IMG/VR virus record: IMGVR_UViG_3300009496_000071
Coordinates: 1 to 24,303 of that record
Direction: 5' to 3' (one strand)
Length of the DNA: 24,303 nt
From: a virus
Taxonomy: Duplodnaviria; Caudoviricetes
Part shown: one piece after another, positions 1,103-24,303 of the stretch
Layout: every line of letters starts with the position of its first letter
Numbering within the stretch: the first letter of the stretch is position 1
Program-made: the position numbers and the translations under genes
Notes under the pieces: model-generated
The model's input: only the letters and a program-made list of their open reading frames with translations
Database searches by the model: none
What the model was told of the DNA's origin: nothing

Positions 1103-1331
1103 AGCAGTACATGAACTTATAAGGGTAGCTGAAGAAGAAATAATAGTTGAAGGCAGCGAAGACGAACTTGCTGCTGATAGATTAAAAAACGCGGCTGCTA
1201 CTAAAAAATTAGCAATTTTTGATGCTTTTGAAATATTAACCCGTATTGAAGCAGAAAAAAACCTAATGGAAAATAAACCCGCTGAAGATAAACAAAGCTT
1301 TAGTGGATTTGCTGAAAGAAGATCTAAGTAA
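1056..1331 (+). CDS. Small helical protein upstream of TerL, possible terminase small subunit (91 aa)
   Basis: Overlaps the previous gene by 47 nt and is coupled to terL by TAATG; helical and charged; function inferred from position only. Confidence 0.6.
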   Translation: MNVKDLKSNIIQAGYKAVHELIRVAEEEIIVEGSEDELAADRLKNAAATKKLAIFDAFEILTRIEAEKNLMENKPAEDKQSFSGFAERRSK

Positions 1332-3539: not shown

Positions 3540-5963
3540 ATGGCCGAATCAATTTTAAAAAGTTCATTTCCTAGTCAAATTGCTAGTGATGCTGAAAAAG
3601 CAAGCTCAGAGTATGGGGCAAAAGTAGCAAGAGCTATTGAACACGAGTGGTTTAAAAGAGATAGTGGTGCAACACGTTTTTATTCAAATAGAGATGAGTT
3701 TCACAGATTAAGATTATATGCAAGAGGCGAGCAGTCTGTTAAAAAATATAAAGATGAGTTGTCTATTAACGGCGATTTGTCTTATCTTAATTTAGACTGG
3801 AAGCCTGTACCTATTATACCTAAGTTTGTAGATATTGTGGTAAATGGCATGTCTGACAGATTATATGATATTAAAGCGTACTCACAAGATAGTTCTAGTA
3901 TAAAAAAAAGAACAGAATACGTTGAGTCTGTGTTGGCTGATATGCAAACAAGAGCAATATCAGATCAAATACAGCAGGAGCTTGGAATTAATGTGTATAG
4001 CAATGATCCTGCAACATTACCTCACAACGAAGAAGAGTTGGCTTTACGAATGCAATTAGAATACAAACAATCTATAGAAATTGCACAGGAGCAGGCTATT
4101 CACGTTGTTTTAAATACTAATAAATATGACCTATTAAAAAGACGTATTAATTATGATTTAACTGTAATTGGTATTGGAGCGACAAAAAATACATTTAATA
4201 AAGCTGAGGGAATTAAACTAGAGTATGTTGACCCCGCTAATTTAGTATATTCATATACAGATTCACCTTATTTTGATGATATATATTATATTGGAGAAAT
4301 AAAAAGTGTTACATTAAATGAATTAAAAACACAATTTCCTGATTTAGATAATGAAGAACTTCAAAAGCTTAGTAAGCAAGGAAGTCAAACTTCTGCTGCT
4401 CATAATAGGTTTATAAATGAGGACAGTACATTAGATGCAAACACAATACAAGTTTTATATTTTAATTTTAAAACATATAAGAACGAAGTATTTAAAATAA
4501 AGAAAACAGCAACAGGTGCTGATAAAGCTTTAGCTAAAAATGATCAATTTAATCCTCCTAAGGATAAAAGAGCTGATTTTGAAAAAGTTTCTAGGTCTGT
4601 TGAAGTTATATATGATGGTGCGTTTGTAATTGGTGTTGGAAAATTACTTAAGTGGGAAATGGCTAAAAATATGACGCGCCCAAAAAGTGATACGTCTAAA
4701 GCTATGTTTAATTATAGCGTTGTAGCACCAAGAATATACAAAGGAAGAATTGAATCTTTAGTTAGTAGAATTACAAGTTTTGCTGATATGATTCAATTAA
4801 CACATTTAAAACTACAGCAAGTATTGTCAAGAATGATTCCTGATGGAGTCTATTTAGACGCTGATGGCTTGGCTGAAATAGATTTAGGAAATGGAACAAA
4901 TTACAATCCTCAAGAAGCATTAAATATGTTTTTCCAAACAGGTAGTGTAATTGGTAGATCTTTAACAGCCGACGGAGACATGAATGCGGGCAGAATGCCT
5001 ATTCAAGAGCTAACCTCTAATGGTGGTAATAATAAAATAAATTCTCTTATAAGCACTTATAATTATTATCTACAGATGATACGTGATGTTAGCGGATTAA
5101 ACGAAGCAAGAGATGGTAGTAAGCCAGATGCTAACGCTTTAGTTGGTATTCAAAAAATGGCTGCAGCTAATTCTAACACAGCTACTAGGCATATATTACA
5201 AGGAAGTATGTATTTAACTGTTAAAACAGCAGAAGCTATTAGTTTGCGTATATCCGATATATTAGAATTTTCACCAACTAGAGAATCTTTTATATCTAGT
5301 ATAGGTAGATTTAATGTAGCAACATTAGAAGAAGTAGCCAATATGCATATGCATGACTTTGGCATTTTTATTGAGTTAGAGCCAGACGCAGAAGAAAAGC
5401 AGCTGCTTGAAAATAACATACAACAAGCTCTTTCTAGAGACCAAATATATCTTGAGGATGCTATTGATATTAGAGAAGTTAAAAATTTAAAACTAGCTAA
5501 TCAATTATTAAAAGTACGTAGACGTAAAAAATTAGAGCAAGATCAAAAAATTTCACAAGCTAATATTCAAGCTCAAGCTAATGCTAATTCACAAAACACT
5601 CAGGTAGCTGCTCAAATGGAAGTTCAAAAGAACGAAGCTCTTACTGCACAAAAAGTAGAGTTAATACAAATAGAGTCAGAGCTTGAAATGCAAAAAATGC
5701 AAACTGAAAAAGAACTTAAGAAAGAACTTATGAAATATGAGTTTGATCTTAATATTGCTATTAAGCAACAAGACAATGATCTTTTAGATAAAAAAGAAAA
5801 ATATAAAGAAGATCGGAAAGATGAAAGAACTAGAATACAAGCTGGTCAACAATCTAAACTAATTGAGCAAAGAAAAGATCGAAAAGGAGAGCAAGAGTTT
5901 GAATCCGCTGGTAATGATACCATGGGTAGCGGATTTAATTTAGAAATGTTTGAACCAAGATAA
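3540..5963 (+). CDS. Portal protein (807 aa)
   Basis: Follows TerL; size and motifs (LDWKPVPIIPKFVDIVVNG, IRDVSGLNEARDGS) and a Gln/Glu/Lys-rich coiled-coil C-terminal barrel fit crAss-like/P22-type portals. Confidence 0.88.
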   Translation: MAESILKSSFPSQIASDAEKASSEYGAKVARAIEHEWFKRDSGATRFYSNRDEFHRLRLYARGEQSVKKYKDELSINGDLSYLNLDWKPVPIIPKFVDIVVNGMSDRLYDIKAYSQDSSSIKKRTEYVESVLADMQTRAISDQIQQELGINVYSNDPATLPHNEEELALRMQLEYKQSIEIAQEQAIHVVLNTNKYDLLKRRINYDLTVIGIGATKNTFNKAEGIKLEYVDPANLVYSYTDSPYFDDIYYIGEIKSVTLNELKTQFPDLDNEELQKLSKQGSQTSAAHNRFINEDSTLDANTIQVLYFNFKTYKNEVFKIKKTATGADKALAKNDQFNPPKDKRADFEKVSRSVEVIYDGAFVIGVGKLLKWEMAKNMTRPKSDTSKAMFNYSVVAPRIYKGRIESLVSRITSFADMIQLTHLKLQQVLSRMIPDGVYLDADGLAEIDLGNGTNYNPQEALNMFFQTGSVIGRSLTADGDMNAGRMPIQELTSNGGNNKINSLISTYNYYLQMIRDVSGLNEARDGSKPDANALVGIQKMAAANSNTATRHILQGSMYLTVKTAEAISLRISDILEFSPTRESFISSIGRFNVATLEEVANMHMHDFGIFIELEPDAEEKQLLENNIQQALSRDQIYLEDAIDIREVKNLKLANQLLKVRRRKKLEQDQKISQANIQAQANANSQNTQVAAQMEVQKNEALTAQKVELIQIESELEMQKMQTEKELKKELMKYEFDLNIAIKQQDNDLLDKKEKYKEDRKDERTRIQAGQQSKLIEQRKDRKGEQEFESAGNDTMGSGFNLEMFEPR

Positions 5964-11218: not shown

Positions 11219-14200
11219 ATGGCAGAATTAAAGCACACTTTTCAGTCCGGAAGGATGAACAAAGACTTTGATGAAAGGTTACTTCCAAATGGTGAATATA
11301 GAGATGCTCTAAATATTCAAATATCTTCTTCAGAAGGCTCAGATGTTGGCGCTATTGAAAACATACTAGGTAATAAAAAGTTATCTAGTATTAATTTAGA
11401 AAATGCTAAAACAATTGGAGTAATTGCCCACACTTTAAAAGATAAAATATATTGGTTTATTTGTGCAGATAATATTGATGGCATATATGAATTTGATCAA
11501 CAACAAGGAACAATATTACCTATACTTATTGATAAAAAAATAACGTTATCTAAGGTATTAACTTCAATAAATGTTGAATCAAATAGTGATAATGAATTAG
11601 TACTTGATAATATATTAACAACTGAGTTAAAAGAGCTGTGTGGCGCTTTGCCATTAAACAATGATGATGAAGTATTGGTTAACAACAACCTAGACTTAAC
11701 CTGTGCAGATCCTTATATTAAACTTTCAATACCTAAAAATTCGGTATTAAGAAAAGAGAATAATAAATATGTATTTAAGAATGTAGAGTATAATGGTCAA
11801 TCTTATGGTAAGATAGATTTAAGCTTTGTGTATAGCACAGACTCTGTTTTAAATTTTTCTAAAAGCAATTTAATTACAGGTGTAAACATCATTGATGATA
11901 TGTTATTCTGGACAGACAACTTAAATCCTCCAAGAAAAATAAACATCCCTACGTTTAAAAAGTTTTCTAACACTGTGTACCCAAATACGCCCGGTATTTT
12001 TAATACTCAAACAGTAGTAGTATTTGACAAAAAAGACACGAATGGAAATGTTACACAAGGTAATAGAACTTTTACTGAAGAAGATATAAAAGTAGCTAAA
12101 AAAGCCCCTTTATTTGCTCCATCTTTGCTGTTAGAAAAATTCTTAGGTAATGGAATTTATGAAATAAATAAAAAAATAAATTTTTACCAGCAATCATCAG
12201 CTGGTGTAGCCGGACAGGGTAACAAAGTGATAGGTGTTGGTGATGATCTTACTCTATCTGGTTTAACAACATTACCTAGTTGGAGTGTTGGTAACAGTAT
12301 AAGATTAACTGGAGATGAAATAAGTGGAAACGGGGAACTAAATAGCATAGGTACTTTAAAGTCTATTGGTGTGGATAGTGCTGTAATAACTATAACAAGT
12401 CAAGATAATATACCTACTATTAATGATTATTCTGTTAAACTAGAATTAATAGTAAAAGATCCTATATACGAATTGGAATTTGTTAGATTTGGATATAGAT
12501 GGAAATATAAGGATGGTGAATATTCTGCATTATCTCCATTTTCAGAATCTGCTTTTATACCCGGCGAATTTGATTATGATGGTAAAGAAGCATTCAATAA
12601 AGGAATGCAAAACAACATAAGAAAAATAACATTGTCTAATTTTGATTTAGGAGACGACAATATTGAAGAAATTGAAATATTATTTAAAGAAACAAGAAAT
12701 CAAAATATATACACATTACAAGCTGTAAAAAGATTAGGTTTTTTAAACAATTATGAAATAACTAAAAAACAAATACATTCTGTATTGCCTAATGATCAAT
12801 TGCTAAGGAGTTGGGATAATGTACCAAAAGTTGCTAAAGCACAAGAAGTTACAGCTAATAGGATAATATATGGTAATTACAAGCAAAACTATGATATATA
12901 TAATGAACCTATTTTTGATATATATTTAGGTGCAAGAAGTGATAACTTTAAAAGATCAATAAAATCAAACAGACCATATCAAGTAGGAGTTGTTTATATG
13001 GATAGTGATAACAGACACTCTCCTGTGCTTTCAAATCAAACAGGTACAGTTTTTGTTGATAAAAATCAATCTGTTTTTGAAAACTGCTTTAACATATCTT
13101 TAAAAAACAATCCACCCGCTTGGGCAAAATATTTTAAATATTATATAAAAGACACTTCCAACGAATATTATAACTTAACAGCTGACAAATTTTACCATGA
13201 TACCGAAAATGGATATAGTTATATTTCTTTTCCATCTACAGAACGAAATAAAATAACAGATAAAACTTATTTATTATTAAAAAAGCAGCACGGGGCAAAT
13301 AAAGCTGTTTTAAACACTAACAATAGATATAAAGTTATTGATATATTTAATGAACCACCTGATTTTGTATCTGAAATTAAAAAACAAGTATATAGCCTTT
13401 CTAATATACAATTTGGAGCTGGATTGCAAATTGAAACCCCTAAAACAACCAAAGCTGACAATTTAACGCCTACTGAAAATAGTACAAAAATTGTTATTTT
13501 AGCCGCTAATAACGGAGATCCTGACAATACACCATTAGGTATATCTAACACAGATAAAGAACAAATTTTAAAAAATAGATATATACAATTTCAAATAGGG
13601 GGTCAAACAAGCAGACCATATAAAATAAAAAAATTAAATTATAATAATTTATTGGTTGACGATTTAGAGCTTACTATTGATGAGTCTTTTGGAAATGATG
13701 TAAATTTTATATATAACGCAGATGACACATTAAAAGACGGTATATCTATTAATATATTAGAAGTAAAAAACGAAAAAGGAGCAAAGCAATTTGATGGAAG
13801 ATTTTTTATTAAAATTAGAACAAACGCAACTTTATTAAACTCTGAAGTTTCTTCTAATATAGTAGGAGAATATCAAAATGTAGATTCTTACCAATTAGAT
13901 GGAAACCATGCCTACAAAAACAACAGACAGCGTTCTAAAAATAATGCAGACGAAAACCCGCAATATCCAATTTGGGTTGCAAGGGGTGGTTTAAAAACAA
14001 ATGCGTTTACATTAGCTGGTATTAATGGAAAATTTAGTATTCAATTTGAAGAGGCTACTGTAAACCAAGATGAATCAATTATTAAAAAATTTAGTGTTGG
14101 AACTAAATTACAATTTGGCACTGATGAAACTATTTATGAAATAAGTAAAGCTGTTTTTACTAAACTTGAACTAAATAATAAAAAGGAAGTATCTAAAGTG

Positions 14201-17200
14201 TCTTTAGAATTTGCAGACGCAGAGGGTAATAATTTACCTTTAAAAGAGGAGGTGGTGATACCACAGCAGCACGCAAAAGAAAAAGTTACATTAAATATAG
14301 TTGAATCGGTTGACGATGAAAAAGCTTTTTTTACTAAGAATCCAGCAATATTCGAAACAGAACCATTAGAATCTATTACAGAGCTTGATCTTTATTTTGA
14401 AACAGAAAAAGCATATCCAATTAGTGAACATGGCAAAGTGCAATCATTAAAATGGTATAATACTTTTTGTTTTAAAAATGGGGTTGAATCTAATAGAATT
14501 AGAGATGATTTTAATAATATTTATATAAGCACTGGTATTAAGGCTTCTGCTACTTTATCAGAACAATTTAAAGAAGAACACAAGTTTAATGGATTAATTT
14601 GGTCTGGAATTGTTAATTCAAGAACAGGCATTAACAAATCAAATGAGTTTAATCAAGCTAATACAATAACTAAAGATTTATTACCATCATATGGTAGTAT
14701 TCAATTACTAGACGCATGGGACGATCAAATAATTATTCTTTGTGAAGATAAAATTGTTAGAGCTTATGCTGATAAGGATATATTATATAATGCAGATGGT
14801 AATCCAAACGTAGTAGCAACTAATAGAGTAATTGGAGCAATACAGCCTTATTCAGGAGAATATGGTATATCAAACAATCCAGAGTCTTATGCTAAATATG
14901 GCTTTAGAGCTTATTTTACTGATAAAATGCGTGGAGAAGTGTTAAGGTTATCAAGAGATGGTCTTACTCCTATTAGTAAATTAAATATGTCTTCTTTTTT
15001 TAAAGATAGGTTTTTTAGCAAAGGCTGTTATAACTCAAATACAGAGTTAACTGATATTCTTGGATCTTACGATAATTACAATGATTTGTATAACGTTTCT
15101 TTTGCAAATCAAGATACGGTTTGTTTTGATGAAAATGTTAGCGGGTGGGTAACACGAAAATCTTTTGTTCCAGAAAATGCAATTTCCTTAAATAATAAGT
15201 ATTATACATTTGTAAATGGAGAACTTTGGGAACAAGACACTAAGGATGTTCCTTATAATAATTTTTATGATACACAATATAATTCTTTAGTTGAGCTAGA
15301 AATTAATGATAACCCTTCAGTTATTAAAAACTATAAAACACTAAGTTATGAAGGAAGCTCGGGATGGACAGCAAATATTGTAACTGATCAGCAAAAATCA
15401 AATGATTTTGCGTTTATTCCTAAAGAAAACAAATACTTTACTAATATTCCAGGAGAAGTAAGAACTATTGAAAATGTTGACCCTAAAAATTTTAACTTTC
15501 AAGGGGTTGGGCAAGCTTTATCTATAAGCGCAATTAGTGCAGCAAATAATACAAACATTACTTTTGATATATCTCCTAGTGAGACTACATCGTATAAATC
15601 ATCGCCCAAGATTTTAACAAATACTCCTGGAGCAAAACTGCCTTCAACTGTTGATATAAAAATATTTTCAAAAAATAACTATACTTTAGATGCAAGCAAG
15701 TTTAATTTAAAAAATGTTATTGCAACTAATGATGGTGAAGACGTTATTTTAACTTACACACATGGTTTAAAAATTCAACCTTCTGCAAATAAAAGTATAA
15801 ACTTGGAATTATGCAAAATTAATTTTGCATCTAAAAAAGATATATCAACAACAGGTAACTATGTTTTGAGTGGTAATAATTATACAACAACCAAGGGCAG
15901 CGGAAATTATTCTGTTATTGGTAATACTAACGTAATAAAAAATATTACCTCAAGAACAATAACTCCTGCTGATGGTTGGACAATAACAGAGGCTGATATT
16001 GCTATTGACAATCCTAATATATTAATAACAAAACAAACAAATAAAGACGGGAGTATAACGTTATTTGAAAAAATAATTATAGGGGAAGGTAGTGAAACAA
16101 ATATAAATTATACAATAACAGTAAACCCTAAAGAAGAAGTAGTCAAAACCAAAACAATACTTTACTACGATTTAGATGAGTCTAACGTAACACCTAATAA
16201 CAATATTAGATTATTAGAAGTTTATGGTGATCCTGGTGCTGAATTTGCTTATATATTAACGGATACTTCTGGAGAAATTAAAAAAGAAATTAAACTTACA
16301 ATGCCCAATTCTGGTGTTTATGAGGACACTTTAATTTTTCCAACCGGTACAACAGACGAAACGTTTAATGTTAAAATAAGCTCAGGAGACGGGACGGTTT
16401 TAAGTTCAGATATTGTAGATGCGGTAATATACAGAAAAGCTAAAGCAGCACTATCTTTTACTTTCATATCACAATTTAATGATGTTGTAAGTAACAAGGT
16501 AACGCTAAAAGGTTTTACAGGTGATGTAATTAGATCCTCTTTTTCTCAAATTATACAACTTCCTACAGCGGTTTACACGCTTCAAAGACAACCCCAAAAA
16601 TCTGATATTGTTTTTGATTTAGCTGGAGATAATATTAATATTTATAATCTTAATGCAGTATTAGATGATGTTGCTGATACTTTGACCATTACAGGTGAAA
16701 TTGAAGTTGACAATATAATTGAAAACAATAAAGGTATATTAACCTTAGATAGTATTATAAATGAACAAATAACATTAACTATTGATTTTTCAAATATAAC
16801 AACCAACTCATTAGCTACAACAAATTATTCATGGGATCCAAATCCAACAACACATACAATAACAGGTGGTAAAAAACTACCTGCTGAAATATTAAATAGT
16901 TATAATTTTACTTTAACTCCAACGGCAGGTTATAGATTTTTAAATTCTATAACCAATGAAAGTTTTGTTTTAGTCAATGCTTCTAATAATAATGTGTTGA
17001 GTACTTATGCAAATAATAATGAATTAACATTAAGTATTGATGATGATGGATTAAAAATAGGTTTTGATACATTAAAATTCAATCTTCCTGATTCAACACA
17101 AACAATAACTATAAGACCAACAGCGCAAATATCAGAATTAATTACTATTGACTCTTCATATAGCTTATTATACGTTCCTTTAGATAGTGAGGATAGACTA

Positions 17201-19249
17201 TTCGCAAATAAACTTATACTAGGTGAGCTAACGGATGCTTCTAATCAAAACTTTTTATTCCAAAAAATATTTAAAATTGATAGAAAAGTTTCTCAAAATG
17301 AAGATTACACTAAAATATTTTCAACAACTGGTCACACAATTAATTTATTAGATAACGAGCTTTCTTTAGCTACGGCGGGAACATACACGGATATAAATGG
17401 TAATAGTAAAACAATAACTAGTAACATAGAAATTAATAATAATAAAACGGAATTAACTTTAAATATACTTGCCAATATAAATGCTAATCCTGAAAAGGCT
17501 TTAGGTAGAGTAGAGTTTGATTTAGCAACAGAAGAGTCATATCAAGTTATTGAATTGCAAAAAGGTGATTGTTTCTCTACATCATCTTCGTTCAATGCTA
17601 GATTGTTTAATATTGATCCTTTAAATGCAGACCCTGCCATAGGTGGTTATTTAACAAAATACACCTCATCTGAAGAAGGAGTAAGTAATGGGGAAGTAGA
17701 ATTAGAAAATACTTATAAAATAGTTGGAACAGGTTATTTAATTAAAACAACAAAATCGGATCCATTTAGTGTGGATGTAATAAAAGACATTGAAGAATGT
17801 AATCTTGATCAAGACGGTGATGGTGTTAATGATGATTTAGACGCATTCCCATTTGATCCTACTGAATCTTCTGATAATGATAAAGATGGGATAGGAGATA
17901 ATGCAGATCCAGATGATGATAATGACGGATGGTCTGATGCAGAAGAAAAAGCATATGGTACAGACCCTAAGGATCCTAATAATAAACCTTTAGATACAGA
18001 TGGTGATGGAACGACTGATTCATTTGACACAGATGATGACAATGATGGGTGGAGTGATACAAAAGAAGGCACATATGGCACAGACCCACAGGATGCAAAC
18101 AGTAAACCTTTAGACACAGACGGTGATGGAAATCCAGATTCAGCTGACACGGATGATGATGGGGATGGAATTAGCGATATTGATGAAATAGCCGCGGGAA
18201 GTGATCCACTCGATGCTAATAGTAAGCCACCCGCGGACACAGATGGAGATGGGATTATTGATAGCGAAGACTTAGACCCAACTAGGCCAAGTATAAGCAG
18301 TGCAAATGATTTTTCATTTAACACTGACCATTATAGTGATAGTAGTTACAGCCCTAGAAGCAATGGTCAAGTAAGATATTACTACAGAGGGGCTAGTTCT
18401 GGGTATATAATACCAAGATTAAACAGGTTGCCTCAAGGCATAGGTATTAGTCTTTTAACTTGGAAGGCTAGAACGGTAAATGCACCTTGGGTAAATATTA
18501 AAAACACAACAGGACAAGTTATCGAAGATGATAAAATTCAAGATAAAAAAATATTCACAGAAGGTGATAGTGTTAATTTTAATATTTCTGAATTAACTTC
18601 TGAAGACGATAGAGAAGGCAAAATTGCCGTAGATTTTTATTATCAAAATAAATTTATTCTAACAATAGAAGAAGACATAGACCAAAAAGCTGCTGTTTTT
18701 ACCCCTACCGCTTTAACAAGTGGAGAGGATCTACCCACTCCAACTTCAGCAAATATAGATCAAAGTTCTAAAGCATGCCAGGCTATTTTAAGACCAAGTG
18801 CTGGAGGTAAAACTTTTCCTCAAATATTAGAATATGATTTAGGATCAGGCACTGGAACTATAAATATGTATTTTAACGCAGTGCTTAAACCTGATAGATT
18901 TGTTGTTGTTTATGATGGTGAAATAAAAATTGACACTGGGTATATAACAAGACATAGAGACGGTTATGCACAAGGTGACATAAATCTTGCTTTAGATGCA
19001 AAAAGTATTACTAGAACAAATGTAAGATCCCAAGTTTCTGCTTCGGGTAATAGTGCAAGACCTATTGTGGATGGGGTAAAAAGAAATATTGCTGGAACAG
19101 ATGTTCATTGGACATGGGAAAAAAGATCAAGTGTTTCAAAAGCATATGTATATGTTTATGCTCCACTAACAGGAACAAACTGGGAGGTAGCAATGTCTTG
19201 TCCTAATGAAGACATAGAGCTTACTTTTTACAAAGCCACATCGGGATAA
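11219..19249 (+). CDS. Tail stabilisation (muzzle/nozzle) protein with long C-terminal adhesin-like extension (2676 aa)
   Basis: N-terminus FQSGRMNKDFDERLLPNGEYRDALNI, LFWTDNLNPPRKIN, NGVESNRIRDDFN, YGISNNPES motifs of crAss-like stabilisation proteins; core appears to end near FQGVG (about 15511), followed by beta-rich repeats, TSP3-like repeats and a BACON-like domain. Confidence 0.8.
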   Translation: MAELKHTFQSGRMNKDFDERLLPNGEYRDALNIQISSSEGSDVGAIENILGNKKLSSINLENAKTIGVIAHTLKDKIYWFICADNIDGIYEFDQQQGTILPILIDKKITLSKVLTSINVESNSDNELVLDNILTTELKELCGALPLNNDDEVLVNNNLDLTCADPYIKLSIPKNSVLRKENNKYVFKNVEYNGQSYGKIDLSFVYSTDSVLNFSKSNLITGVNIIDDMLFWTDNLNPPRKINIPTFKKFSNTVYPNTPGIFNTQTVVVFDKKDTNGNVTQGNRTFTEEDIKVAKKAPLFAPSLLLEKFLGNGIYEINKKINFYQQSSAGVAGQGNKVIGVGDDLTLSGLTTLPSWSVGNSIRLTGDEISGNGELNSIGTLKSIGVDSAVITITSQDNIPTINDYSVKLELIVKDPIYELEFVRFGYRWKYKDGEYSALSPFSESAFIPGEFDYDGKEAFNKGMQNNIRKITLSNFDLGDDNIEEIEILFKETRNQNIYTLQAVKRLGFLNNYEITKKQIHSVLPNDQLLRSWDNVPKVAKAQEVTANRIIYGNYKQNYDIYNEPIFDIYLGARSDNFKRSIKSNRPYQVGVVYMDSDNRHSPVLSNQTGTVFVDKNQSVFENCFNISLKNNPPAWAKYFKYYIKDTSNEYYNLTADKFYHDTENGYSYISFPSTERNKITDKTYLLLKKQHGANKAVLNTNNRYKVIDIFNEPPDFVSEIKKQVYSLSNIQFGAGLQIETPKTTKADNLTPTENSTKIVILAANNGDPDNTPLGISNTDKEQILKNRYIQFQIGGQTSRPYKIKKLNYNNLLVDDLELTIDESFGNDVNFIYNADDTLKDGISINILEVKNEKGAKQFDGRFFIKIRTNATLLNSEVSSNIVGEYQNVDSYQLDGNHAYKNNRQRSKNNADENPQYPIWVARGGLKTNAFTLAGINGKFSIQFEEATVNQDESIIKKFSVGTKLQFGTDETIYEISKAVFTKLELNNKKEVSKVSLEFADAEGNNLPLKEEVVIPQQHAKEKVTLNIVESVDDEKAFFTKNPAIFETEPLESITELDLYFETEKAYPISEHGKVQSLKWYNTFCFKNGVESNRIRDDFNNIYISTGIKASATLSEQFKEEHKFNGLIWSGIVNSRTGINKSNEFNQANTITKDLLPSYGSIQLLDAWDDQIIILCEDKIVRAYADKDILYNADGNPNVVATNRVIGAIQPYSGEYGISNNPESYAKYGFRAYFTDKMRGEVLRLSRDGLTPISKLNMSSFFKDRFFSKGCYNSNTELTDILGSYDNYNDLYNVSFANQDTVCFDENVSGWVTRKSFVPENAISLNNKYYTFVNGELWEQDTKDVPYNNFYDTQYNSLVELEINDNPSVIKNYKTLSYEGSSGWTANIVTDQQKSNDFAFIPKENKYFTNIPGEVRTIENVDPKNFNFQGVGQALSISAISAANNTNITFDISPSETTSYKSSPKILTNTPGAKLPSTVDIKIFSKNNYTLDASKFNLKNVIATNDGEDVILTYTHGLKIQPSANKSINLELCKINFASKKDISTTGNYVLSGNNYTTTKGSGNYSVIGNTNVIKNITSRTITPADGWTITEADIAIDNPNILITKQTNKDGSITLFEKIIIGEGSETNINYTITVNPKEEVVKTKTILYYDLDESNVTPNNNIRLLEVYGDPGAEFAYILTDTSGEIKKEIKLTMPNSGVYEDTLIFPTGTTDETFNVKISSGDGTVLSSDIVDAVIYRKAKAALSFTFISQFNDVVSNKVTLKGFTGDVIRSSFSQIIQLPTAVYTLQRQPQKSDIVFDLAGDNINIYNLNAVLDDVADTLTITGEIEVDNIIENNKGILTLDSIINEQITLTIDFSNITTNSLATTNYSWDPNPTTHTITGGKKLPAEILNSYNFTLTPTAGYRFLNSITNESFVLVNASNNNVLSTYANNNELTLSIDDDGLKIGFDTLKFNLPDSTQTITIRPTAQISELITIDSSYSLLYVPLDSEDRLFANKLILGELTDASNQNFLFQKIFKIDRKVSQNEDYTKIFSTTGHTINLLDNELSLATAGTYTDINGNSKTITSNIEINNNKTELTLNILANINANPEKALGRVEFDLATEESYQVIELQKGDCFSTSSSFNARLFNIDPLNADPAIGGYLTKYTSSEEGVSNGEVELENTYKIVGTGYLIKTTKSDPFSVDVIKDIEECNLDQDGDGVNDDLDAFPFDPTESSDNDKDGIGDNADPDDDNDGWSDAEEKAYGTDPKDPNNKPLDTDGDGTTDSFDTDDDNDGWSDTKEGTYGTDPQDANSKPLDTDGDGNPDSADTDDDGDGISDIDEIAAGSDPLDANSKPPADTDGDGIIDSEDLDPTRPSISSANDFSFNTDHYSDSSYSPRSNGQVRYYYRGASSGYIIPRLNRLPQGIGISLLTWKARTVNAPWVNIKNTTGQVIEDDKIQDKKIFTEGDSVNFNISELTSEDDREGKIAVDFYYQNKFILTIEEDIDQKAAVFTPTALTSGEDLPTPTSANIDQSSKACQAILRPSAGGKTFPQILEYDLGSGTGTINMYFNAVLKPDRFVVVYDGEIKIDTGYITRHRDGYAQGDINLALDAKSITRTNVRSQVSASGNSARPIVDGVKRNIAGTDVHWTWEKRSSVSKAYVYVYAPLTGTNWEVAMSCPNEDIELTFYKATSG
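17807..18280 (+). repeat. Degenerate 120-nt (40-aa) tandem repeat encoding bacterial thrombospondin type 3-like Ca2+-binding units
   Basis: Recurrent DxDGDG / DDDNDGWSD..E...GTDP.D; AAACCTTTAGAYACAGAYGGTGATGGA at 17984 and 18104 (period 120 nt). Confidence 0.85.
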
Positions 19250-19264
19250 ATAAATAATATAAAA

Positions 19265-19588
19265 ATGGCAGATATAACAATAACATTTACAAATACAATA
19301 AACCAATCTTTACAGGTTGGTGATATTGTTTATTTTAAACATAATGATGATGTAGCTGAGCTAGGCTTATGCACATCTATATCAGTCGATAGATTAAGCA
19401 TAGTAGCTGATATGCCTGATACTAACATTAGACCAGAAGCTGGTGATTACTTTATGTTTGGTAAAAATAACGTAATAAATAGTAATGGCTTAATAGGCTA
19501 CCATGCAACTGTTAAGTTAACAAATAACGCGACTGACTTTAAAGAGTTGTTTGCGGTAAATTCAGAAATAAATATAAGCAGTAATTAA
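19265..19588 (+). CDS. Small tail-associated beta protein (107 aa)
   Basis: INQSLQVGDIVYF and NGLIGYHATVKLTN..ELFAVNSE; directly after the stabilisation gene. Confidence 0.7.
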   Translation: MADITITFTNTINQSLQVGDIVYFKHNDDVAELGLCTSISVDRLSIVADMPDTNIRPEAGDYFMFGKNNVINSNGLIGYHATVKLTNNATDFKELFAVNSEINISSN

Positions 19589-19590
19589 TT

Positions 19591-20385
19591 ATGAGCAATG
19601 GAATAAGAAAACCTGTACAAACTGTAGCTTCTGCTGGTTTTAATCCTGCGGGGTTACAACCTTTTGAAACTACTGGTCCAACGGCAATGAGTGGAGCAAA
19701 TATCAATGCAGCTCTTAAGGGGCCCGCTAGCTTAGGCAACCCTCAAAGTGGGATTGGAAAAGCAATTTCAGGCACCGCTCAAAATGATGCTGGGGCTTTT
19801 GGCCAAATTGCTGAAGGATTAGCTGGCATAGCTGGAGGGATTGTTGGTGGAAGAGCTAGAAGACAAGAACAAAGAGCTGCAAGAGCTGAATTACAACAAA
19901 GACAAAGAGAATATGAATCTTTTGAGTTTCAAGATCCGAGTGCTGGTATGACAAATCCTTATGAAGATTTAACAGTAAATCAACAACAAGCACAGTTTGC
20001 TTCTCAACAACAACAGCAAGGTTTATCATCCACATTGTCTGGACTACAAAGCGCGGCTGGTGGGTCTGGAATTGGTGCTTTAGCTCAAACCTTAGCGGCA
20101 CAACAATCACAAAATTTACAGGCATCATCCGCTAGTATTGGTCAACAAGAGCGAGCTAATCAAATAGCTAGAGCAAGCGGGCAACAAAATTTAGAGGCGC
20201 AAAGATCTGCTGGGCAACAATATGTACAGCAACAAGAGTTTGGCAGAACAGAGCAAATGTACAACGTATCTGCAGCAAGAAAAGCAGCGGCTGATGCGGC
20301 TAGAAAACAAGCTACTGAAGGTTTAGTTGGAGGAGTTGGAAATTTAGCTGTTGGGGCGGGCAGAATGTTAGCCGGCGGACTTTAA
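19591..20385 (+). CDS. Putative ejection / DNA-transfer (pilot-like) protein (264 aa)
   Basis: Gly/Ala-rich hydrophobic segments (GLAGIAGGIVGG; GLVGGVGNLAVGAG) flanking Gln-rich coiled coil; position after tail genes. Confidence 0.65.
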   Translation: MSNGIRKPVQTVASAGFNPAGLQPFETTGPTAMSGANINAALKGPASLGNPQSGIGKAISGTAQNDAGAFGQIAEGLAGIAGGIVGGRARRQEQRAARAELQQRQREYESFEFQDPSAGMTNPYEDLTVNQQQAQFASQQQQQGLSSTLSGLQSAAGGSGIGALAQTLAAQQSQNLQASSASIGQQERANQIARASGQQNLEAQRSAGQQYVQQQEFGRTEQMYNVSAARKAAADAARKQATEGLVGGVGNLAVGAGRMLAGGL

Positions 20386-20396
20386 AATAAAATATT

Positions 20397-21737
20397 ATGG
20401 CATTAGATACAAGATTAATTGGACAAGCATTAGGTGAAGGACAGCCGGTAGATTTAGCTGGGGCTATTAGACCCGCTGTGGTTAGAGGCGAACAGGCTGT
20501 ATTAAGAACTAAAGCTCAAGAGCAAAGAAGAAAAGAACTTCAAGCGCAAGCAATTTCACAATTACCACAATTAGATGAAAGTAAAGTTCCTATGCAAATG
20601 CGTGAATGGGCAATAGGACAAGCGTTAGAAGCTCGCAATGTTGCATTAAGTGCTATAAGAAATGAAGACTTAGACCCTGTTGAAAAACAAATGGCTATTA
20701 GTAATGCACAACAAAGTATAAGTAAAGTAGCCGCTAAAACAAACGATTTTAAGCAATGGATAGCTCAATTTGCTGATACTCAACCAGATGACCTTAGTAA
20801 GCTTAATAGTCCTGAATTAATGGAAAGAGTTAATGATATTTACTCTGGTAAGTTTAAAGTTGATGGTAATCAATTTGTATTTGAAGATGGCACCGTAAAA
20901 GACTTTAATTCTTTAGTTAACACAAGACATATATCAAAAAGATCGGACGCATACATGTCTCAATTAAAAGAATTAGGAAATGAGTACGAAAAATATGGAT
21001 TACAGGGGTGGGATGAAACAGCTTTTGAAAATAAAATAGATAATGAATTGGCTAGTGAAAAATATACTGACGCTGATTTAGCTAGTATTGCTGTTGATGA
21101 ATTAGGATTACCTGAAAGTGAAATTAAAGCAATACAAGATGATTTTGAAGATAATGGTATATTAGACGATGTAGATAAACAATCATTAATTACAAAAATT
21201 AAAAATCAATACAAAACTGCTGCTAAAAGTGCTTATGAAAACTCTAGGAGATTGTATAAAGAAAAAACCGCACCTAAGCCATCTACACCACCAAAACCTA
21301 CGGGAAGGGAAATTGAAAGAGTATTAACATCAGCTGCTGCTCAAGAATATAGTTTAGACATTTCTAAATTTAAAAATGAACTTGGCATAGCTGTTAACCC
21401 AGCTGGAATAGCTATTGGTGATGCAAAAGATGCTTCTTTAGATATTGAATCAGATAATTTTCCAAATTTAGTAAACAAATTAGGTTTTAGAATATCAGGC
21501 GTATTTAGAGAAAATAAAGAAGATCCAAACTCTAATATACAATCCATAGAGCTTAAAGAGCAAGGTGGTAATAAAACATTTGAAGTTGTTCCCGGTCAAA
21601 ATACAATAAGCTTTTTAGAACAAGCATTTTTAATGCAGGGTGTTAATAGAATAGAGGTTCCTAAATTAATAAATAATGTATTATACGGAACGTTTATCCC
21701 TCCAAGTCAAAAAATAAATACAGATTACGAAGATTAA
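20397..21737 (+). CDS. Putative internal virion (cargo/ejection) protein (446 aa)
   Basis: Helical charged ORF with Pro-rich linker; lies between pilot-like and giant cargo genes. Confidence 0.6.
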   Translation: MALDTRLIGQALGEGQPVDLAGAIRPAVVRGEQAVLRTKAQEQRRKELQAQAISQLPQLDESKVPMQMREWAIGQALEARNVALSAIRNEDLDPVEKQMAISNAQQSISKVAAKTNDFKQWIAQFADTQPDDLSKLNSPELMERVNDIYSGKFKVDGNQFVFEDGTVKDFNSLVNTRHISKRSDAYMSQLKELGNEYEKYGLQGWDETAFENKIDNELASEKYTDADLASIAVDELGLPESEIKAIQDDFEDNGILDDVDKQSLITKIKNQYKTAAKSAYENSRRLYKEKTAPKPSTPPKPTGREIERVLTSAAAQEYSLDISKFKNELGIAVNPAGIAIGDAKDASLDIESDNFPNLVNKLGFRISGVFRENKEDPNSNIQSIELKEQGGNKTFEVVPGQNTISFLEQAFLMQGVNRIEVPKLINNVLYGTFIPPSQKINTDYED

Positions 21738-21739
21738 TT

Positions 21740-21966
21740 ATGATTGAAATTTATACTGTAAATGGAACAACTTATAAAGTTGGACCAAATTCAAAAGAAA
21801 AATTTTTAAATGATTTTCCCAATGCTACTTTATTAGACGAGCCGGGAAAGATACCTCCTTCGCAGGAAGAAAAGCCGGGTGTGCTTGCGGAGGCAAATGC
21901 AACACCCGAAATATCTCTTACGGGATCACCATTGGTGGATACTTCTTTGGAATCACCAAAAACTAG
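21740..21966 (+). CDS. Predicted 75-aa transframe product (37 aa zero frame + 38 aa -1 frame)
   Basis: -1 frame after the slip reads DTSFAGRKAGCACGGKCNTRNISYGITIGGYFFGITKN then TAG 21964-21966; that frame has a TGA at 21811 and no ATG/GTG/TTG of its own. Confidence 0.55.
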
Positions 21967-24303
21967 TATTAGAAAAAAAACTAGAGAAGGTGATTTAAAA
22001 AGAAAAAAAGAAAAAATATTAAATAATGAAATAGAAGATATTGCAGAATCATTTGAAGCATTTAATTTAGAAGAATTGTCTAATGAAGATCGCTTATATA
22101 TTCAAGATTTAGCTCAAGAGCAATTAATAAATAATGCTCCAGACTCTCAAAATTATAATTTTACAGCAGAACAAATTGATACAGGCGCTAGAAATATTTT
22201 AAATGAAGCAAATAAATTAGCACAAGAAGAGCGGGAAAAAATTAACAGTGTTATTAATATGGACATGTCTGAATCTTTAAGCAATGCTGCTTTAAATGTT
22301 GGACAAGATGTTAAAAAAATAAAAAGTTTTTGGTCAGGTGAATCTCCAGCTTTAGACCTAGCTACTGCAGCTGTATATAAGGCTATTTTTGGGCAAGAGA
22401 ATGTCGATGAATTTGTAGAAAAATATCGCGGAGTGAGCATACCCGTAATGGGGCTTCCTGTTTCATTAACAAAAGGTCTTGGGACTAAAGAGATACTTAA
22501 AAGTATACCTAAATTAAAAGCGGAGCAAGAAAAAAGAAAACAAACATTACCTATTATTGAAAGTTTTAAGCAAGGTGAAATTCTTAAAGGAGGAGCTGCT
22601 ATACTAAGTTCAATGGTGAGTATGGTTGGTTCCGCTGGTTTTGGCGCTGGTACTGTTGGTTCAGGTTTTTATGCGGATTTTGCTGCAGAAAATTATGTAA
22701 CTTTTAATGAAGAATTAGCTAAAAGAGAAAATACAACTCTTGAAAATCTTATAATTGAAGGAAAAGATAATGCCAAAGCCCCCGTTGCCTTAGCTGGTAT
22801 ACAAGCCATGTCTGAAGTTGTTGGTTTATCATCCATGCTTTCACCTATAAAAAAGAATGGTATAAAAGTTATTTCAAATAAATTTTTAGATTCACCATTA
22901 GGTGCTAAAGTATTAGATATATATAGTTCTGGAAAAACGGAATTTATAACAGAAAATTTTCAATTTGGGATTGATGAATACAATAGAGTTTTAGGAAAAA
23001 CTGGAGACTCCTCAAAAGCAGCATTAGCTATGGTAGAGGGTATGGCATCACAAGAAGGTCTTGAAAGTGGCTTACAGGGATTAGGTGGCGCGGTTGGAAT
23101 TAAAGGCAGCAGATATCTTTTAAAAGCAGCAAGCAATTTAAGAGCACCTGCTGACAACGAAGGTATACAAGCAGATATAAATGAATTATCTGAATTGCAA
23201 AAACAGTATAATTCTACAGAAAGCAAAGTAGGTAAGGAAGGTATACAACAAAAAATTAATGATGTAAACAGCAGATTATCTTCAAGGATTACTAAAAGTA
23301 ATGCTATAATACCTAAATTAAATAAAACAGAAATTGATGAGGTTAATTCAATGGGTGATCTTGCTAATTTGCAAGTTCAACGCGTTAAAGAATTAAATAA
23401 AGAATTAGATGAGGGTAATATTAAAAGAAGTGATTATTTAATTGCTTTAGAAGGTTATAAGACAACTTATATTAACGCAAAAAACAGGATTAAAGGTATT
23501 GCTGATACTGCAGAAACTAAACCAGAACAAGTTGTAGCTGAAGAAATAGATACACAAGAACAAACTGCTCCATTAACAGAAGCAGAACAAGCTATACAAA
23601 AAATTATAACAAAAGAAAAAGTAGCCTCTAGCAAAGTTCAACAAATTTACAATGATAAAGGTATTGATGGTATTAACGAAATATTTAAAGAATTTAAAGG
23701 TATAGTAGATAGAATAGTTGACAAGCGTAGAAATGCACCTAATTTTGACAGAGAATTGCTTACTTCTGAAATACAAGTAGGTAAAAGAGGTATTCTTGAT
23801 TTAGTTAGGGCATACCCTAAATATGTAAAAAAACAAGAAGCTGCTAATCAACCTGTAGCTCCATTAGCTGGTTTTATAAATAAGCAATTACCTAATAGAG
23901 CAATTGAAGCATCTCAAAGAATTTTAGGTAAAGAATTTACACAAGATGTTACTGAGGCTAAAGCTGTTACTGCTACTGAAACTGCGGAAGATATTGTTAC
24001 ACAACAAGAGCAAGTAAAGCAAGAAGTAAAAACAGCATTAGCTAAGGATTTAAACTTAGATGAAACAACTCAAAATGATATTGTAAAAGCTGTTGAAAAA
24101 ACATTAGGTACTAAATTACCTGCTGTAACAGATAAAAAGTTTAGACAAGCTTTAACTACTGGTTTTAGAAATGAATTAACTAATACATTTAAAACGGTAT
24201 TTGGTCGTCAAGCATCATACGAGCAATTTTTAAGAGATAATTTTGAAAAAATATATCCTGCAATTCCACAAGAAACTATAAACCGTAATTTTAAAGAATT
24301 TAA
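21740..24303 (+). CDS. Giant internal virion (cargo/ejection) protein, 5' part only (at least 854 aa, runs off window)
   Basis: Translated by hand from ATG 21740 (MIEIYTVNGTTYKVGPNSKEKFLNDFPNA...) with no in-frame stop to the end; the final TAA of the window is out of frame. Gly-rich hydrophobic segments (GGAAILSSMVSMVGSAGFGAGTVGSG; GLQGLGGAVGI), coiled coil, sigma-like segment. Confidence 0.85.
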   Translation, partial: MIEIYTVNGTTYKVGPNSKEKFLNDFPNATLLDEPGKIPPSQEEKPGVLAEANATPEISLTGSPLVDTSLESPKTSIRKKTREGDLKRKKEKILNNEIEDIAESFEAFNLEELSNEDRLYIQDLAQEQLINNAPDSQNYNFTAEQIDTGARNILNEANKLAQEEREKINSVINMDMSESLSNAALNVGQDVKKIKSFWSGESPALDLATAAVYKAIFGQENVDEFVEKYRGVSIPVMGLPVSLTKGLGTKEILKSIPKLKAEQEKRKQTLPIIESFKQGEILKGGAAILSSMVSMVGSAGFGAGTVGSGFYADFAAENYVTFNEELAKRENTTLENLIIEGKDNAKAPVALAGIQAMSEVVGLSSMLSPIKKNGIKVISNKFLDSPLGAKVLDIYSSGKTEFITENFQFGIDEYNRVLGKTGDSSKAALAMVEGMASQEGLESGLQGLGGAVGIKGSRYLLKAASNLRAPADNEGIQADINELSELQKQYNSTESKVGKEGIQQKINDVNSRLSSRITKSNAIIPKLNKTEIDEVNSMGDLANLQVQRVKELNKELDEGNIKRSDYLIALEGYKTTYINAKNRIKGIADTAETKPEQVVAEEIDTQEQTAPLTEAEQAIQKIITKEKVASSKVQQIYNDKGIDGINEIFKEFKGIVDRIVDKRRNAPNFDRELLTSEIQVGKRGILDLVRAYPKYVKKQEAANQPVAPLAGFINKQLPNRAIEASQRILGKEFTQDVTEAKAVTATETAEDIVTQQEQVKQEVKTALAKDLNLDETTQNDIVKAVEKTLGTKLPAVTDKKFRQALTTGFRNELTNTFKTVFGRQASYEQFLRDNFEKIYPAIPQETINRNFKEF
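21844..21908 (+). promoter_or_regulatory. Candidate programmed -1 ribosomal frameshift signal: G GGA AAG heptamer plus downstream structure
   Basis: CCG GGA AAG in correct X XXY YYZ phase at 21844-21850; downstream complementary pairs CGGGTGT(21876-82)/ACACCCG(21902-08), CCTCC(21854-58)/GGAGG(21889-93), TCCT/AGGA(21856-67). Confidence 0.65.

Follow-up and report, generated by a model that had tools for sequence, protein, structure and literature searches.

Conserved programmed frameshifts in the structural genes of phages are few, and the one in lambda G/GT became an annotation landmark and showed that a fixed ratio of two products controls assembly; Xu, Hendrix and Duda are said to have described in 2004 a conserved frameshift in the tail assembly genes of double-stranded DNA phages. 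In Escherichia coli the dnaX gene undergoes a -1 frameshift on A_AAA_AAG with a 3' hairpin, and in Thermus transcriptional slippage takes place on an A-run. The present analysis concerns the viral record IMGVR_UViG_3300009496_000071, called here the window (the whole stretch analysed, a complete record of 24,303 bases estimated to cover ~43% of the genome), in which the last open reading frame (ORF), the 5' part of a giant gene, carries the heptamer G_GGA_AAG at codons 36-37. In the window's phage a programmed -1 ribosomal frameshift very likely operates at this heptamer. Also likely, if by a slightly smaller measure, is that the site belongs to a so far undescribed recoding family, in which hundreds of marine Bacteroidota-type podophage genomes would encode a small basic protein with a beta-hairpin tail in the -1 frame within the first ~80 codons of the giant gene, using interchangeable slip sites (G_GGA_AAG or A_AAG with a hairpin or pseudoknot, T_TTT, A9-A10) and swapping unrelated N-terminal modules before the tail at the slip site.

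With dnaX tau/gamma the locus has in common that a long ORF is truncated and that lineages appear to switch between ribosomal and polymerase slippage; unlike it, there is no homology, and the -1 extension of dnaX gamma amounts to one or a few residues without a function of their own. Compared with lambda gpG/gpGT and the tail assembly chaperones, the heptamer is the same, two products with a common N-terminal part would again be made in a fixed ratio, and the slippery sequence at this position of the gene varies from one phage to its relatives; the lambda shift, however, comes close to the 3' end of a short gene, whose product it lengthens, whereas here it falls at codon 37 of thousands and truncates. 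A lambda G/GT-type tail assembly chaperone was considered and rejected on the grounds of this truncation, of a context without tape-measure or major-tail genes, and of the lack of any Pfam or PHROG match pointing to sequence similarity with G or T. The label 'lambda-type' in the initial annotation, made from the letters of the window, thus describes the heptamer only and not membership of the G/GT family, while its view that the shift would truncate rather than extend agrees with a site at codon 37 of more than 854 and a product of 75 residues.

G_GGA_AAG is listed among the heptamers highly shift-prone in E. coli in the available part of a 2016 recoding review (PMC5009743), a part which contains no mention of Cellulophaga or Bacteroidetes. 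The same portion describes E. coli copA/CopA(Z), which resembles our locus in having an early -1 shift in a long ORF (834 amino acids, aa) and a ~70-aa product of the N-terminal domain (PMC5009743), but differs in that its product stops almost directly past the shift, while here 38 residues would be added that include the most conserved part; moreover, copA encodes a cellular metal pump and the present gene belongs to a phage virion. A further likeness is to the giant cargo genes that follow the muzzle gene in crAss-like phages, the order here being terminase, portal, capsid, a 2676-aa protein with a muzzle hit, small ORFs and the giant ORF; unlike in that group, the nearest cultured relatives are not classified Crassvirales and no RNA polymerase domain was found in the giant protein. 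The giant homologues of cultured relatives are annotated 'structural protein', record annotations which suggest that the giant protein may be present in virions.

In the literature searched, subscription papers and supplements aside, no description of this arrangement was found, in keeping with the initial annotation, and no frameshift is described there for crAss-like cargo genes; the papers on phage Panino and on phi38:1 infection make no mention of frameshifting, nor does the former mention slippage. If true, this would be a second such case, in another class of genes (giant internal virion proteins of podophages) and in the opposite direction, early truncation adding a conserved tail. Hundreds of genomes would gain a small protein that gene callers overlook, and studies of frameshifting in Bacteroidota would have a natural set of slip sites that can replace one another, together with covarying stimulators; the case would also offer a way into how giant proteins are loaded or used, testable in cultured Panino and possibly in phi38:1 and the Flavobacterium elemo phages.

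The features of the site in the window are as follows:

21740..21850, + strand: codons 1-37, the N-terminal module that would be part of both the predicted short product and the giant protein, conserved in clades A-D and in loci L028, L029 and L031-33
21844..21850, + strand: slippery heptamer G_GGA_AAG in X_XXY_YYZ phase, codons 36-37
21850..21966, + strand: -1 frame after the slip, 38 codons from GAT at 21850 to AAC at 21961-63, then TAG at 21964-66
21851..21856, + strand: spacer ATACCT, 6 nt, from the heptamer to stem S1
21857..21893, + strand: predicted stimulatory hairpin S1, arms 21857-66 (CCTTCGCAGG) and 21884-93 (CTTGCGGAGG), 10 bp including 2-3 G-U pairs, 17-nt loop
21876..21908, + strand: candidate stem S2, CGGGTGT (21876-82, within the S1 loop) with ACACCCG (21902-08)
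21880..21900, + strand: Cys cluster C-x-C-G-G-x-C in the -1 frame, found in most, not all, relatives
21919..21957, + strand: conserved -1 tail YGITIGGYFFGIT, a predicted beta-hairpin, with Y, G, G, F and G invariant in 95 peptides

Counted from the ATG at 21740, codon 36 is GGA (21845-47) and codon 37 is AAG (21848-50), which places the heptamer in slippery phase. The -1 ORF (21814-21963) contains no ATG, GTG or TTG, ATT codons being present, and its open run of 50 codons is the longest in the -1 frame of the 854-codon ORF, which has 117 stops in 853 codons and a next longest run of 39. The GC content reaches 0.44-0.50 in 100-nt windows over 21800-21949 versus ~0.21-0.35 in neighbouring windows, and the codons CCG, TCG, GCG and ACG make up 5 of the 41 zero-frame codons here versus 1.42% (109/7702) in the window's ORFs (binomial p = 2.8e-4). 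On all of these points the initial annotation, which had noted the slippery phase, a start-less -1 frame reading 38 residues to a stop, a GC-rich island in an AT-rich gene and rare NCG codons in the zero frame, was accurate.

When contigs were compared with the window over 21600-21980, those from two other studies (X4 and X8) were found to resemble it only from 21844 onward, or only over 21918-21958, the other side being unlike. As the matches begin at 21844, the common DNA starts exactly at the heptamer, and this sequence pattern suggests a recombination boundary at the slip site. Two short contigs of an RNA library (X19) match the window, which places it in an RNA library without thereby proving transcription, and another RNA run (X17) gave no contig matching 21600-21980. 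Three codons past the -1 stop, at 21973-21979, lies an A7 run in X_XXY_YYZ phase (AGA AAA AAA ACT), after which the -1 frame recloses within a few codons.

Relatives were obtained in two ways that make no use of the -1 tail. Scans seeded with the zero-frame N-terminus yielded 17 metagenome loci and a few viral loci, among which the -1 peptide and an in-phase G_GGA_AAG are both retained by L012 (60% identical over 854 aa) and by L013-15 (44%); the -1 frame of the L013-15 group reads TAG TGA directly before GCC GGG AAA G, and since these stops abut the heptamer region, the -1 frame can be entered only at the heptamer. Clade C (L020-26) reads GCA AAG, has a T_AAA_AAA_G run four codons upstream and keeps the tail, which is also present in L028 (A_AAA_AAG, then G_GGA_AAA) and in L029 (G_GGA_AAG). 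Over the 15 codons of the tail, identity in 24 between-clade pairs, which are not independent of each other, is 58% in the -1 frame versus 33% in the zero frame, with mean BLOSUM62 scores of 52.6 and 9.4, respectively. The second search was anchored on the upstream neighbour gene and was chosen over a scan with the giant body because the bodies split into 29 unrelated BLASTP groups. It gave two relatives in addition to the contig of the window itself. Their neighbour proteins are 60-63% identical, and both (2/2) have an in-phase G_GGA_AAG together with a -1 frame tail, in one of them in the form YGITFGRFFFGIT, which lies outside the pattern scanned for below; their N-terminal modules differ from one another.

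Homologues without the heptamer, or with early -1 stops, had been named in the initial annotation as the finding that would speak against a shift, and most relatives speak in its favour (L012-15, the two neighbour-anchored relatives and more than 100 further contigs). Its N-terminal Y.V.G..Y.V module is conserved in clades A-D and the other loci listed above but is not the constant part, as tail-bearing genes have unrelated N-modules. The module Y.V.G..Y.V...F...FP.A is tandem-duplicated before the slip site in L029 and L046 (also in L136 and L049), and other loci have two copies of a different module, LF..DGY.G...DF..L. In one locus (L014:1836+) codon 79 of the giant ORF is an in-frame TAA, the nearly identical L015:2401+ having TCA there; this is either a broken copy or an assembly error. 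A tblastn search of 50,697 phage records with the 854-aa ORF and the 50-aa -1 ORF gave no match, none at E <= 10 for the latter; a DNA pattern for KEKFLNDFP found in the viral contig collection only four contigs already known, and a scan of genome contigs only a single distant relative, L033 (a metagenome-assembled genome of Eubacteriales), which is without the tail.

To describe the spread of the tail, a degenerate DNA pattern for YG[IL]x[IL]Gx[YW]F[FIV]G was scanned over 34 of the 64 parts of a viral contig collection. It occurs on at least 119 of them (~230 estimated for the whole collection), compared with 2 for the reversed pattern, and once duplicates had been merged, earlier loci added and L059 removed, 116 distinct contexts were left; L059 was a chance match, with a zero-frame ORF of 53 aa and no surrounding context. 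Because the tail residues are forced by the pattern, evidence is drawn only from the surroundings of the tail, from the motifs and flanks, and from those relatives that were found independently. In 115 of the 116 contexts (the exception being L042) the tail is read in the -1 frame, and the ORF around it continues without a stop for 100 codons or more, or as far as the retrieved DNA extends. The distance from the ATG to a shift-prone motif has a median of 41 codons and that from the motif to the -1 stop a median of 37, with a range of 19-63 in all loci. An ATG precedes the tail in 1/116 of the -1 ORFs and any start codon in 3/116, and no minus-strand frame is consistently open over the tail interval (48, 35 and 7 of the 116 loci). 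The tail is followed in the -1 frame by an ACN codon whose last base varies freely (A in 50, C in 49, T in 13 and G in 4) and is at once the middle base of a zero-frame codon. The zero-frame N-termini of these ORFs are of several unrelated types, and BLASTP sorts the ~450-500 aa that follow the tail at 73 loci into 29 components. The tail, and not the N-module, is the conserved element of this gene region.

A shift-prone motif lies between the upstream -1 stop and the tail in all 116 contexts, while 253 of 479 control windows, of equal length and phase and taken farther along the same ORFs, have none. The counts for each class are given below and are approximate because the slip-site heuristic placed some sites too late (e.g., in L066 and L122):

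In-phase G_GGA_AAN: 52/116 tail-bearing contexts, 2/479 controls
A-run of at least 7: 22/116 (A7-A10, of which 15 are A9-A10), 35/479 controls
N_NNA_AAG: 27/116, 81/479 controls
T_TTT: 15/116, 108/479 controls
No motif: 0/116, 253/479 controls

In 48 of the 116 the motif lies no more than 9 nt from the upstream -1 stop.

Further evidence comes from the RNA downstream of the motif. For an unselected comparison of z-scores, 48 nt starting 4 nt past the heptamer were folded at 49 GGGAAA[G/T/C] loci, giving a mean minimum free energy (MFE) of -12.8 kcal/mol and a mean z of -1.62, against -4.9 and -0.27 for 104 control windows (Mann-Whitney p = 3e-9). The first paired base is found 5-9 nt past the motif in 38/52 G_GGA_AAN, 21/27 N_NNA_AAG, 8/15 T_TTT and 15/22 A-run contexts. 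In 22 sequences picked for near-gapless alignment and for showing the stem, a 9-bp stem 6 nt past the motif has 96% of its cells paired, as opposed to 79% in shuffles and 25-46% with slid partner columns, and 39 double-change cells are seen where 12.3 are expected (0/500 shuffles as high); single stem pairs take up to five pair types, e.g., AU 10, GC 7, CG 2, UA 2 and GU 1.

In the window itself the pairing of CCTCC/CCTTCGCAGG (21854-66) with CTTGCGGAGG (21884-93) is present, and S1 reaches -13.5 kcal/mol over the 48-nt stretch; compensatory changes in S1 can be seen by eye in the window's sub-clade (ACAAC/GTTGT versus ACATC/GATGT versus ATAGC/GCTGT). Folding of 21851-21912 (62 nt) with RNAfold gives -22.3 kcal/mol (z = -2.64), and S2 alone is the MFE hairpin of this stretch, so that S1 and the hairpin at 21876-21908 compete, although S2 together with S1 would give an H-type pseudoknot. 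In 15 sequences S2 has 97% of its cells paired and one pair double-changed (CG 10, UA 4, UG 1). The hairpin or pseudoknot proposed in the initial annotation therefore stands insofar as both pairings exist; S1 is not the MFE fold of 21851-21912, and the pseudoknot of S1 and S2 is plausible but weakly supported.

The predicted product consists of the N-module followed by a basic linker, which usually contains a CxC...C cluster, and the tail, with basic residues flanking the tail on both sides; in A-run loci KKK(R) often leads straight into the tail. The CxCGGxC cluster pointed out by the initial annotation is common and not universal, being missing in L028, L035, L067 and most A-run loci. An AlphaFold2 model of the 40-aa -1 peptide, built with 95 aligned -1 peptides, has a mean pLDDT (predicted local distance difference test) score of 59.8, and the hairpin of the tail is the one part that can be used (residues 24-30 and 33-39 form the strands, pLDDT ~70-78), which agrees at moderate confidence with the beta-hairpin-like tail of that annotation. 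Prediction of a complex of four copies of the -1 peptide scored 0.02, which says nothing for or against self-association. The -1 peptides have no PHROG or Pfam match, the Pfam search with 95 of them giving only scattered sub-threshold matches (best E = 0.023).

Small predicted proteins of 58-131 aa that contain the N-module and the tail in one frame were also found, 7 + 2 by word search and, by an exhaustive HMMER search, in 25 representative clusters out of 1.84 billion proteins. The tail match ends no more than 3 residues from the C-terminus in 23/25 of these clusters, and KKK runs form the junction in 7/9 of the proteins from the word search. Such proteins show the outcome of a one-base change at the site; they may be unshifted genes, natural indel variants or homopolymer assembly errors, and are not independent proof. 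Among the small in-frame metagenome proteins P0001-P0032, P0014 has the tail followed in frame by sequence like the giant body, and in P0018 the frame switch is apparently later than the GK site. P0031 (110 aa) has a Rubrerythrin-like N-terminus below the cut-off (E = 0.097) and ends in a Cys-rich linker and a tail-like motif; a possible likeness of the tail to the cargo-loading peptides of encapsulins is a weak lead and was given no weight.

The nearest cultured phages by terminase are all phages of marine or aquatic Flavobacteriia and, by the names or descriptions of their records, podoviruses. Terminase identity is 63% to MW202828.1 (an uncultured podovirus of 60.8 kb), 46% to Flavobacterium Elemovirus phages, 41% to Maribacter phage Panino and 36-37% to Cellulophaga phages phi38:1, phi40:1 and phi18:3; the nearest relatives include Cellulophaga Pervagoviridae and Pachyviridae, and none is a classified member of Crassvirales. 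In Panino (L158, PP540027.1, ~37450-37800) the N-module, the giant body and the canonical tail stand in three different frames around an A9 run, and the tail-like -1 ORF has two tail-like motifs; this layout means either a homopolymer length error or slippage needed in both directions. The Panino record has the giant gene starting from an internal start as a 'tRNA methyltransferase' and a small minus-strand coding sequence over the N-module. Runs of A10 in MW202828.1 (L153/L161) and elemoA (L154) and of A9 in phi38:1 gp101 (L155) lie near the start of the giant gene and are followed by a -1 ORF of ~27-47 codons with an aromatic, Gly-rich or Cys-rich end that is loosely tail-like, and these ends may be diverged equivalents of the tail. 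The giant gene of MW202828.1 is annotated 'reticulocyte binding/rhoptry protein', which looks spurious. In phi38:1, gp101 is a 'structural protein' by similarity, and phi18:3 gp123, from a phage without the tail, is so called by tandem mass spectrometry.

The window has an in-phase heptamer, an open -1 frame devoid of start codons and a -1 peptide that is conserved across many relatives; the slip itself and its efficiency are inferred. A share of the ribosomes on the giant gene would slip back by one base at 21844-50, helped by the predicted hairpin or pseudoknot starting 6 nt downstream, and would then read 38 -1 codons to the TAG at 21964-66, making a 75-residue protein instead of the giant one. 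It would be composed of the common N-module, a basic linker, often rich in Cys, and a beta-hairpin tail that is aromatic and Gly-rich and ends in basic residues. In relatives with A9-A10 runs, slippage of either the ribosome or the polymerase would lead into this frame.

A number of points weigh against this interpretation. The MFE fold of 21851-21912 uses a hairpin starting 25 nt past the heptamer and not the stem S1 with its 6-nt spacer, the window's own 48-nt stretch has a z-score of 0.04, and the way in which the 22 covariation sequences were picked inflates that test. The main scan selected for the -1 tail, which makes conservation of the tail within that set partly circular, and N_NNA_AAG and T_TTT alone are not enriched over controls. 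Clade D (L002-4, L016-19) is without the feature, having a 10-residue gap and many -1 stops, as is also the case for L031 and L032/33, which lack the site, and Cellulophaga phage phi18:3 has nothing comparable. The zero-frame peptide is somewhat conserved too (a TSLES motif, TSLES/TSLD in clades A-C), and the region is therefore under dual constraint. The small in-frame proteins may be assembly indels, the efficiency of slipping could be very low, and a tRNA-Lys(CUU), if the host has one, would lower slippage on AAG.

Some of these points are shared by the view that there is no recoding and that the open -1 frame is a by-product of selection on the zero-frame linker, of RNA structure or of recent recombination of a common 5' module, which we consider very improbable. 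The zero-frame TSLES/TSLD motif would fit such a by-product, as would a region that is GC-rich and structured, and between the window and L012/L013 hardly any of the first 90-170 nt differ, even though overall protein identity is only 44-60%. Against this, the tail is kept where the zero-frame N-termini and the downstream bodies are not detectably related, zero-frame second positions are free where the -1 residue is fixed, and among the relatives found independently conservation is higher in the -1 than in the zero frame. The narrow range of the -1 stop past the motif in all loci, the presence of motifs in 116/116 contexts when 253/479 controls have none, and the near absence of start codons from the -1 ORFs (3/116) argue in the same direction.

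Little credence can equally be given to the possibility that the short protein is real but is made in the window's phage by transcriptional slippage, with RNA polymerase adding one base. Relatives do offer a basis for it in the 22/116 with A7-A10 runs at the equivalent place (15 of them A9-A10), in the three frames around A9 in Panino and in the KKK-run junctions of 7/9 small in-frame proteins. The window site, in contrast, has only G3 and A3, and runs this short are not known to make the polymerase slip; a hairpin that follows after 5-9 nt and whose stem covaries is the signature of ribosomal -1 frameshifting, and the RNA library contigs (X19) show no inserted or deleted base over 21750-21911, though contigs drop rare variants. 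Finally, translation of the -1 ORF alone from a non-canonical start, or conservation caused by a gene on the opposite strand, can be practically dismissed, since apart from the ATT codons nothing was found in its support, any start codon is present in only 3/116 relatives and no ATG, GTG or TTG in the window, the -1 frame of L013-15 opens only two codons before the heptamer, and minus-strand frames are open in only 48, 35 and 7 of 116 loci.

If the short protein is produced by ribosomal frameshifting, it might, by analogy with lambda G/GT, act as an assembly or loading adaptor in fixed ratio to the giant protein, a role that we propose tentatively and at somewhat less than even chances. The common module would then bind the giant protein's partner or the giant protein itself, and the tail would attach to some other component of the virion, or else could enter a membrane. 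For the family as a whole, the tail could be a docking peptide for the capsid interior or portal, bringing the giant protein into the procapsid via the common module; the alternative to an adaptor is a membrane-active role of the cationic hairpin, which would act at ejection.

The long ORFs of the window are all on the + strand and follow a podovirus-like or crAss-like order without a tape-measure gene:

First in the listed gene order, + strand: GroES-like protein ORF
1331-3538, + strand: large terminase
3540-5963, + strand: portal
After the portal, + strand: capsid and virion protein genes
11219-19249, + strand: 2676-aa protein with the Crassvirus muzzle C-terminal domain PF25729 (29.7 bits, cut-off 27) and TSP3 repeats
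After the muzzle-hit gene, + strand: three ORFs with no strong family match, 19265-19588 having only a weak PHROG match (E 2.7e-6)
21740..24301, + strand: giant zero-frame ORF, 5' part, 854 codons, open at its 3' end, ATG at 21740

The giant ORF sits just downstream of the muzzle/tail-hub-type genes and belongs to no Pfam or PHROG family; giant proteins of 3859 aa and 1677 aa likewise gave no match to Pfam and PHROGs, with no RNA polymerase or other domain. The name giant virion protein is reasonable because its counterparts in complete relatives code for 3694-3859 aa (sizes taken from MW202828.1 and the elemoA phage) and carry the annotation 'structural protein'; it may be an ejection protein, as the initial annotation had it. 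Between the muzzle-hit gene and the giant ORF, at 19591-20385, lies a Gly/Ala/Gln-rich ORF of 264 aa that belongs to no PHROG or Pfam family, and similar ORFs are found at the same place in two relatives (L163 and L164).

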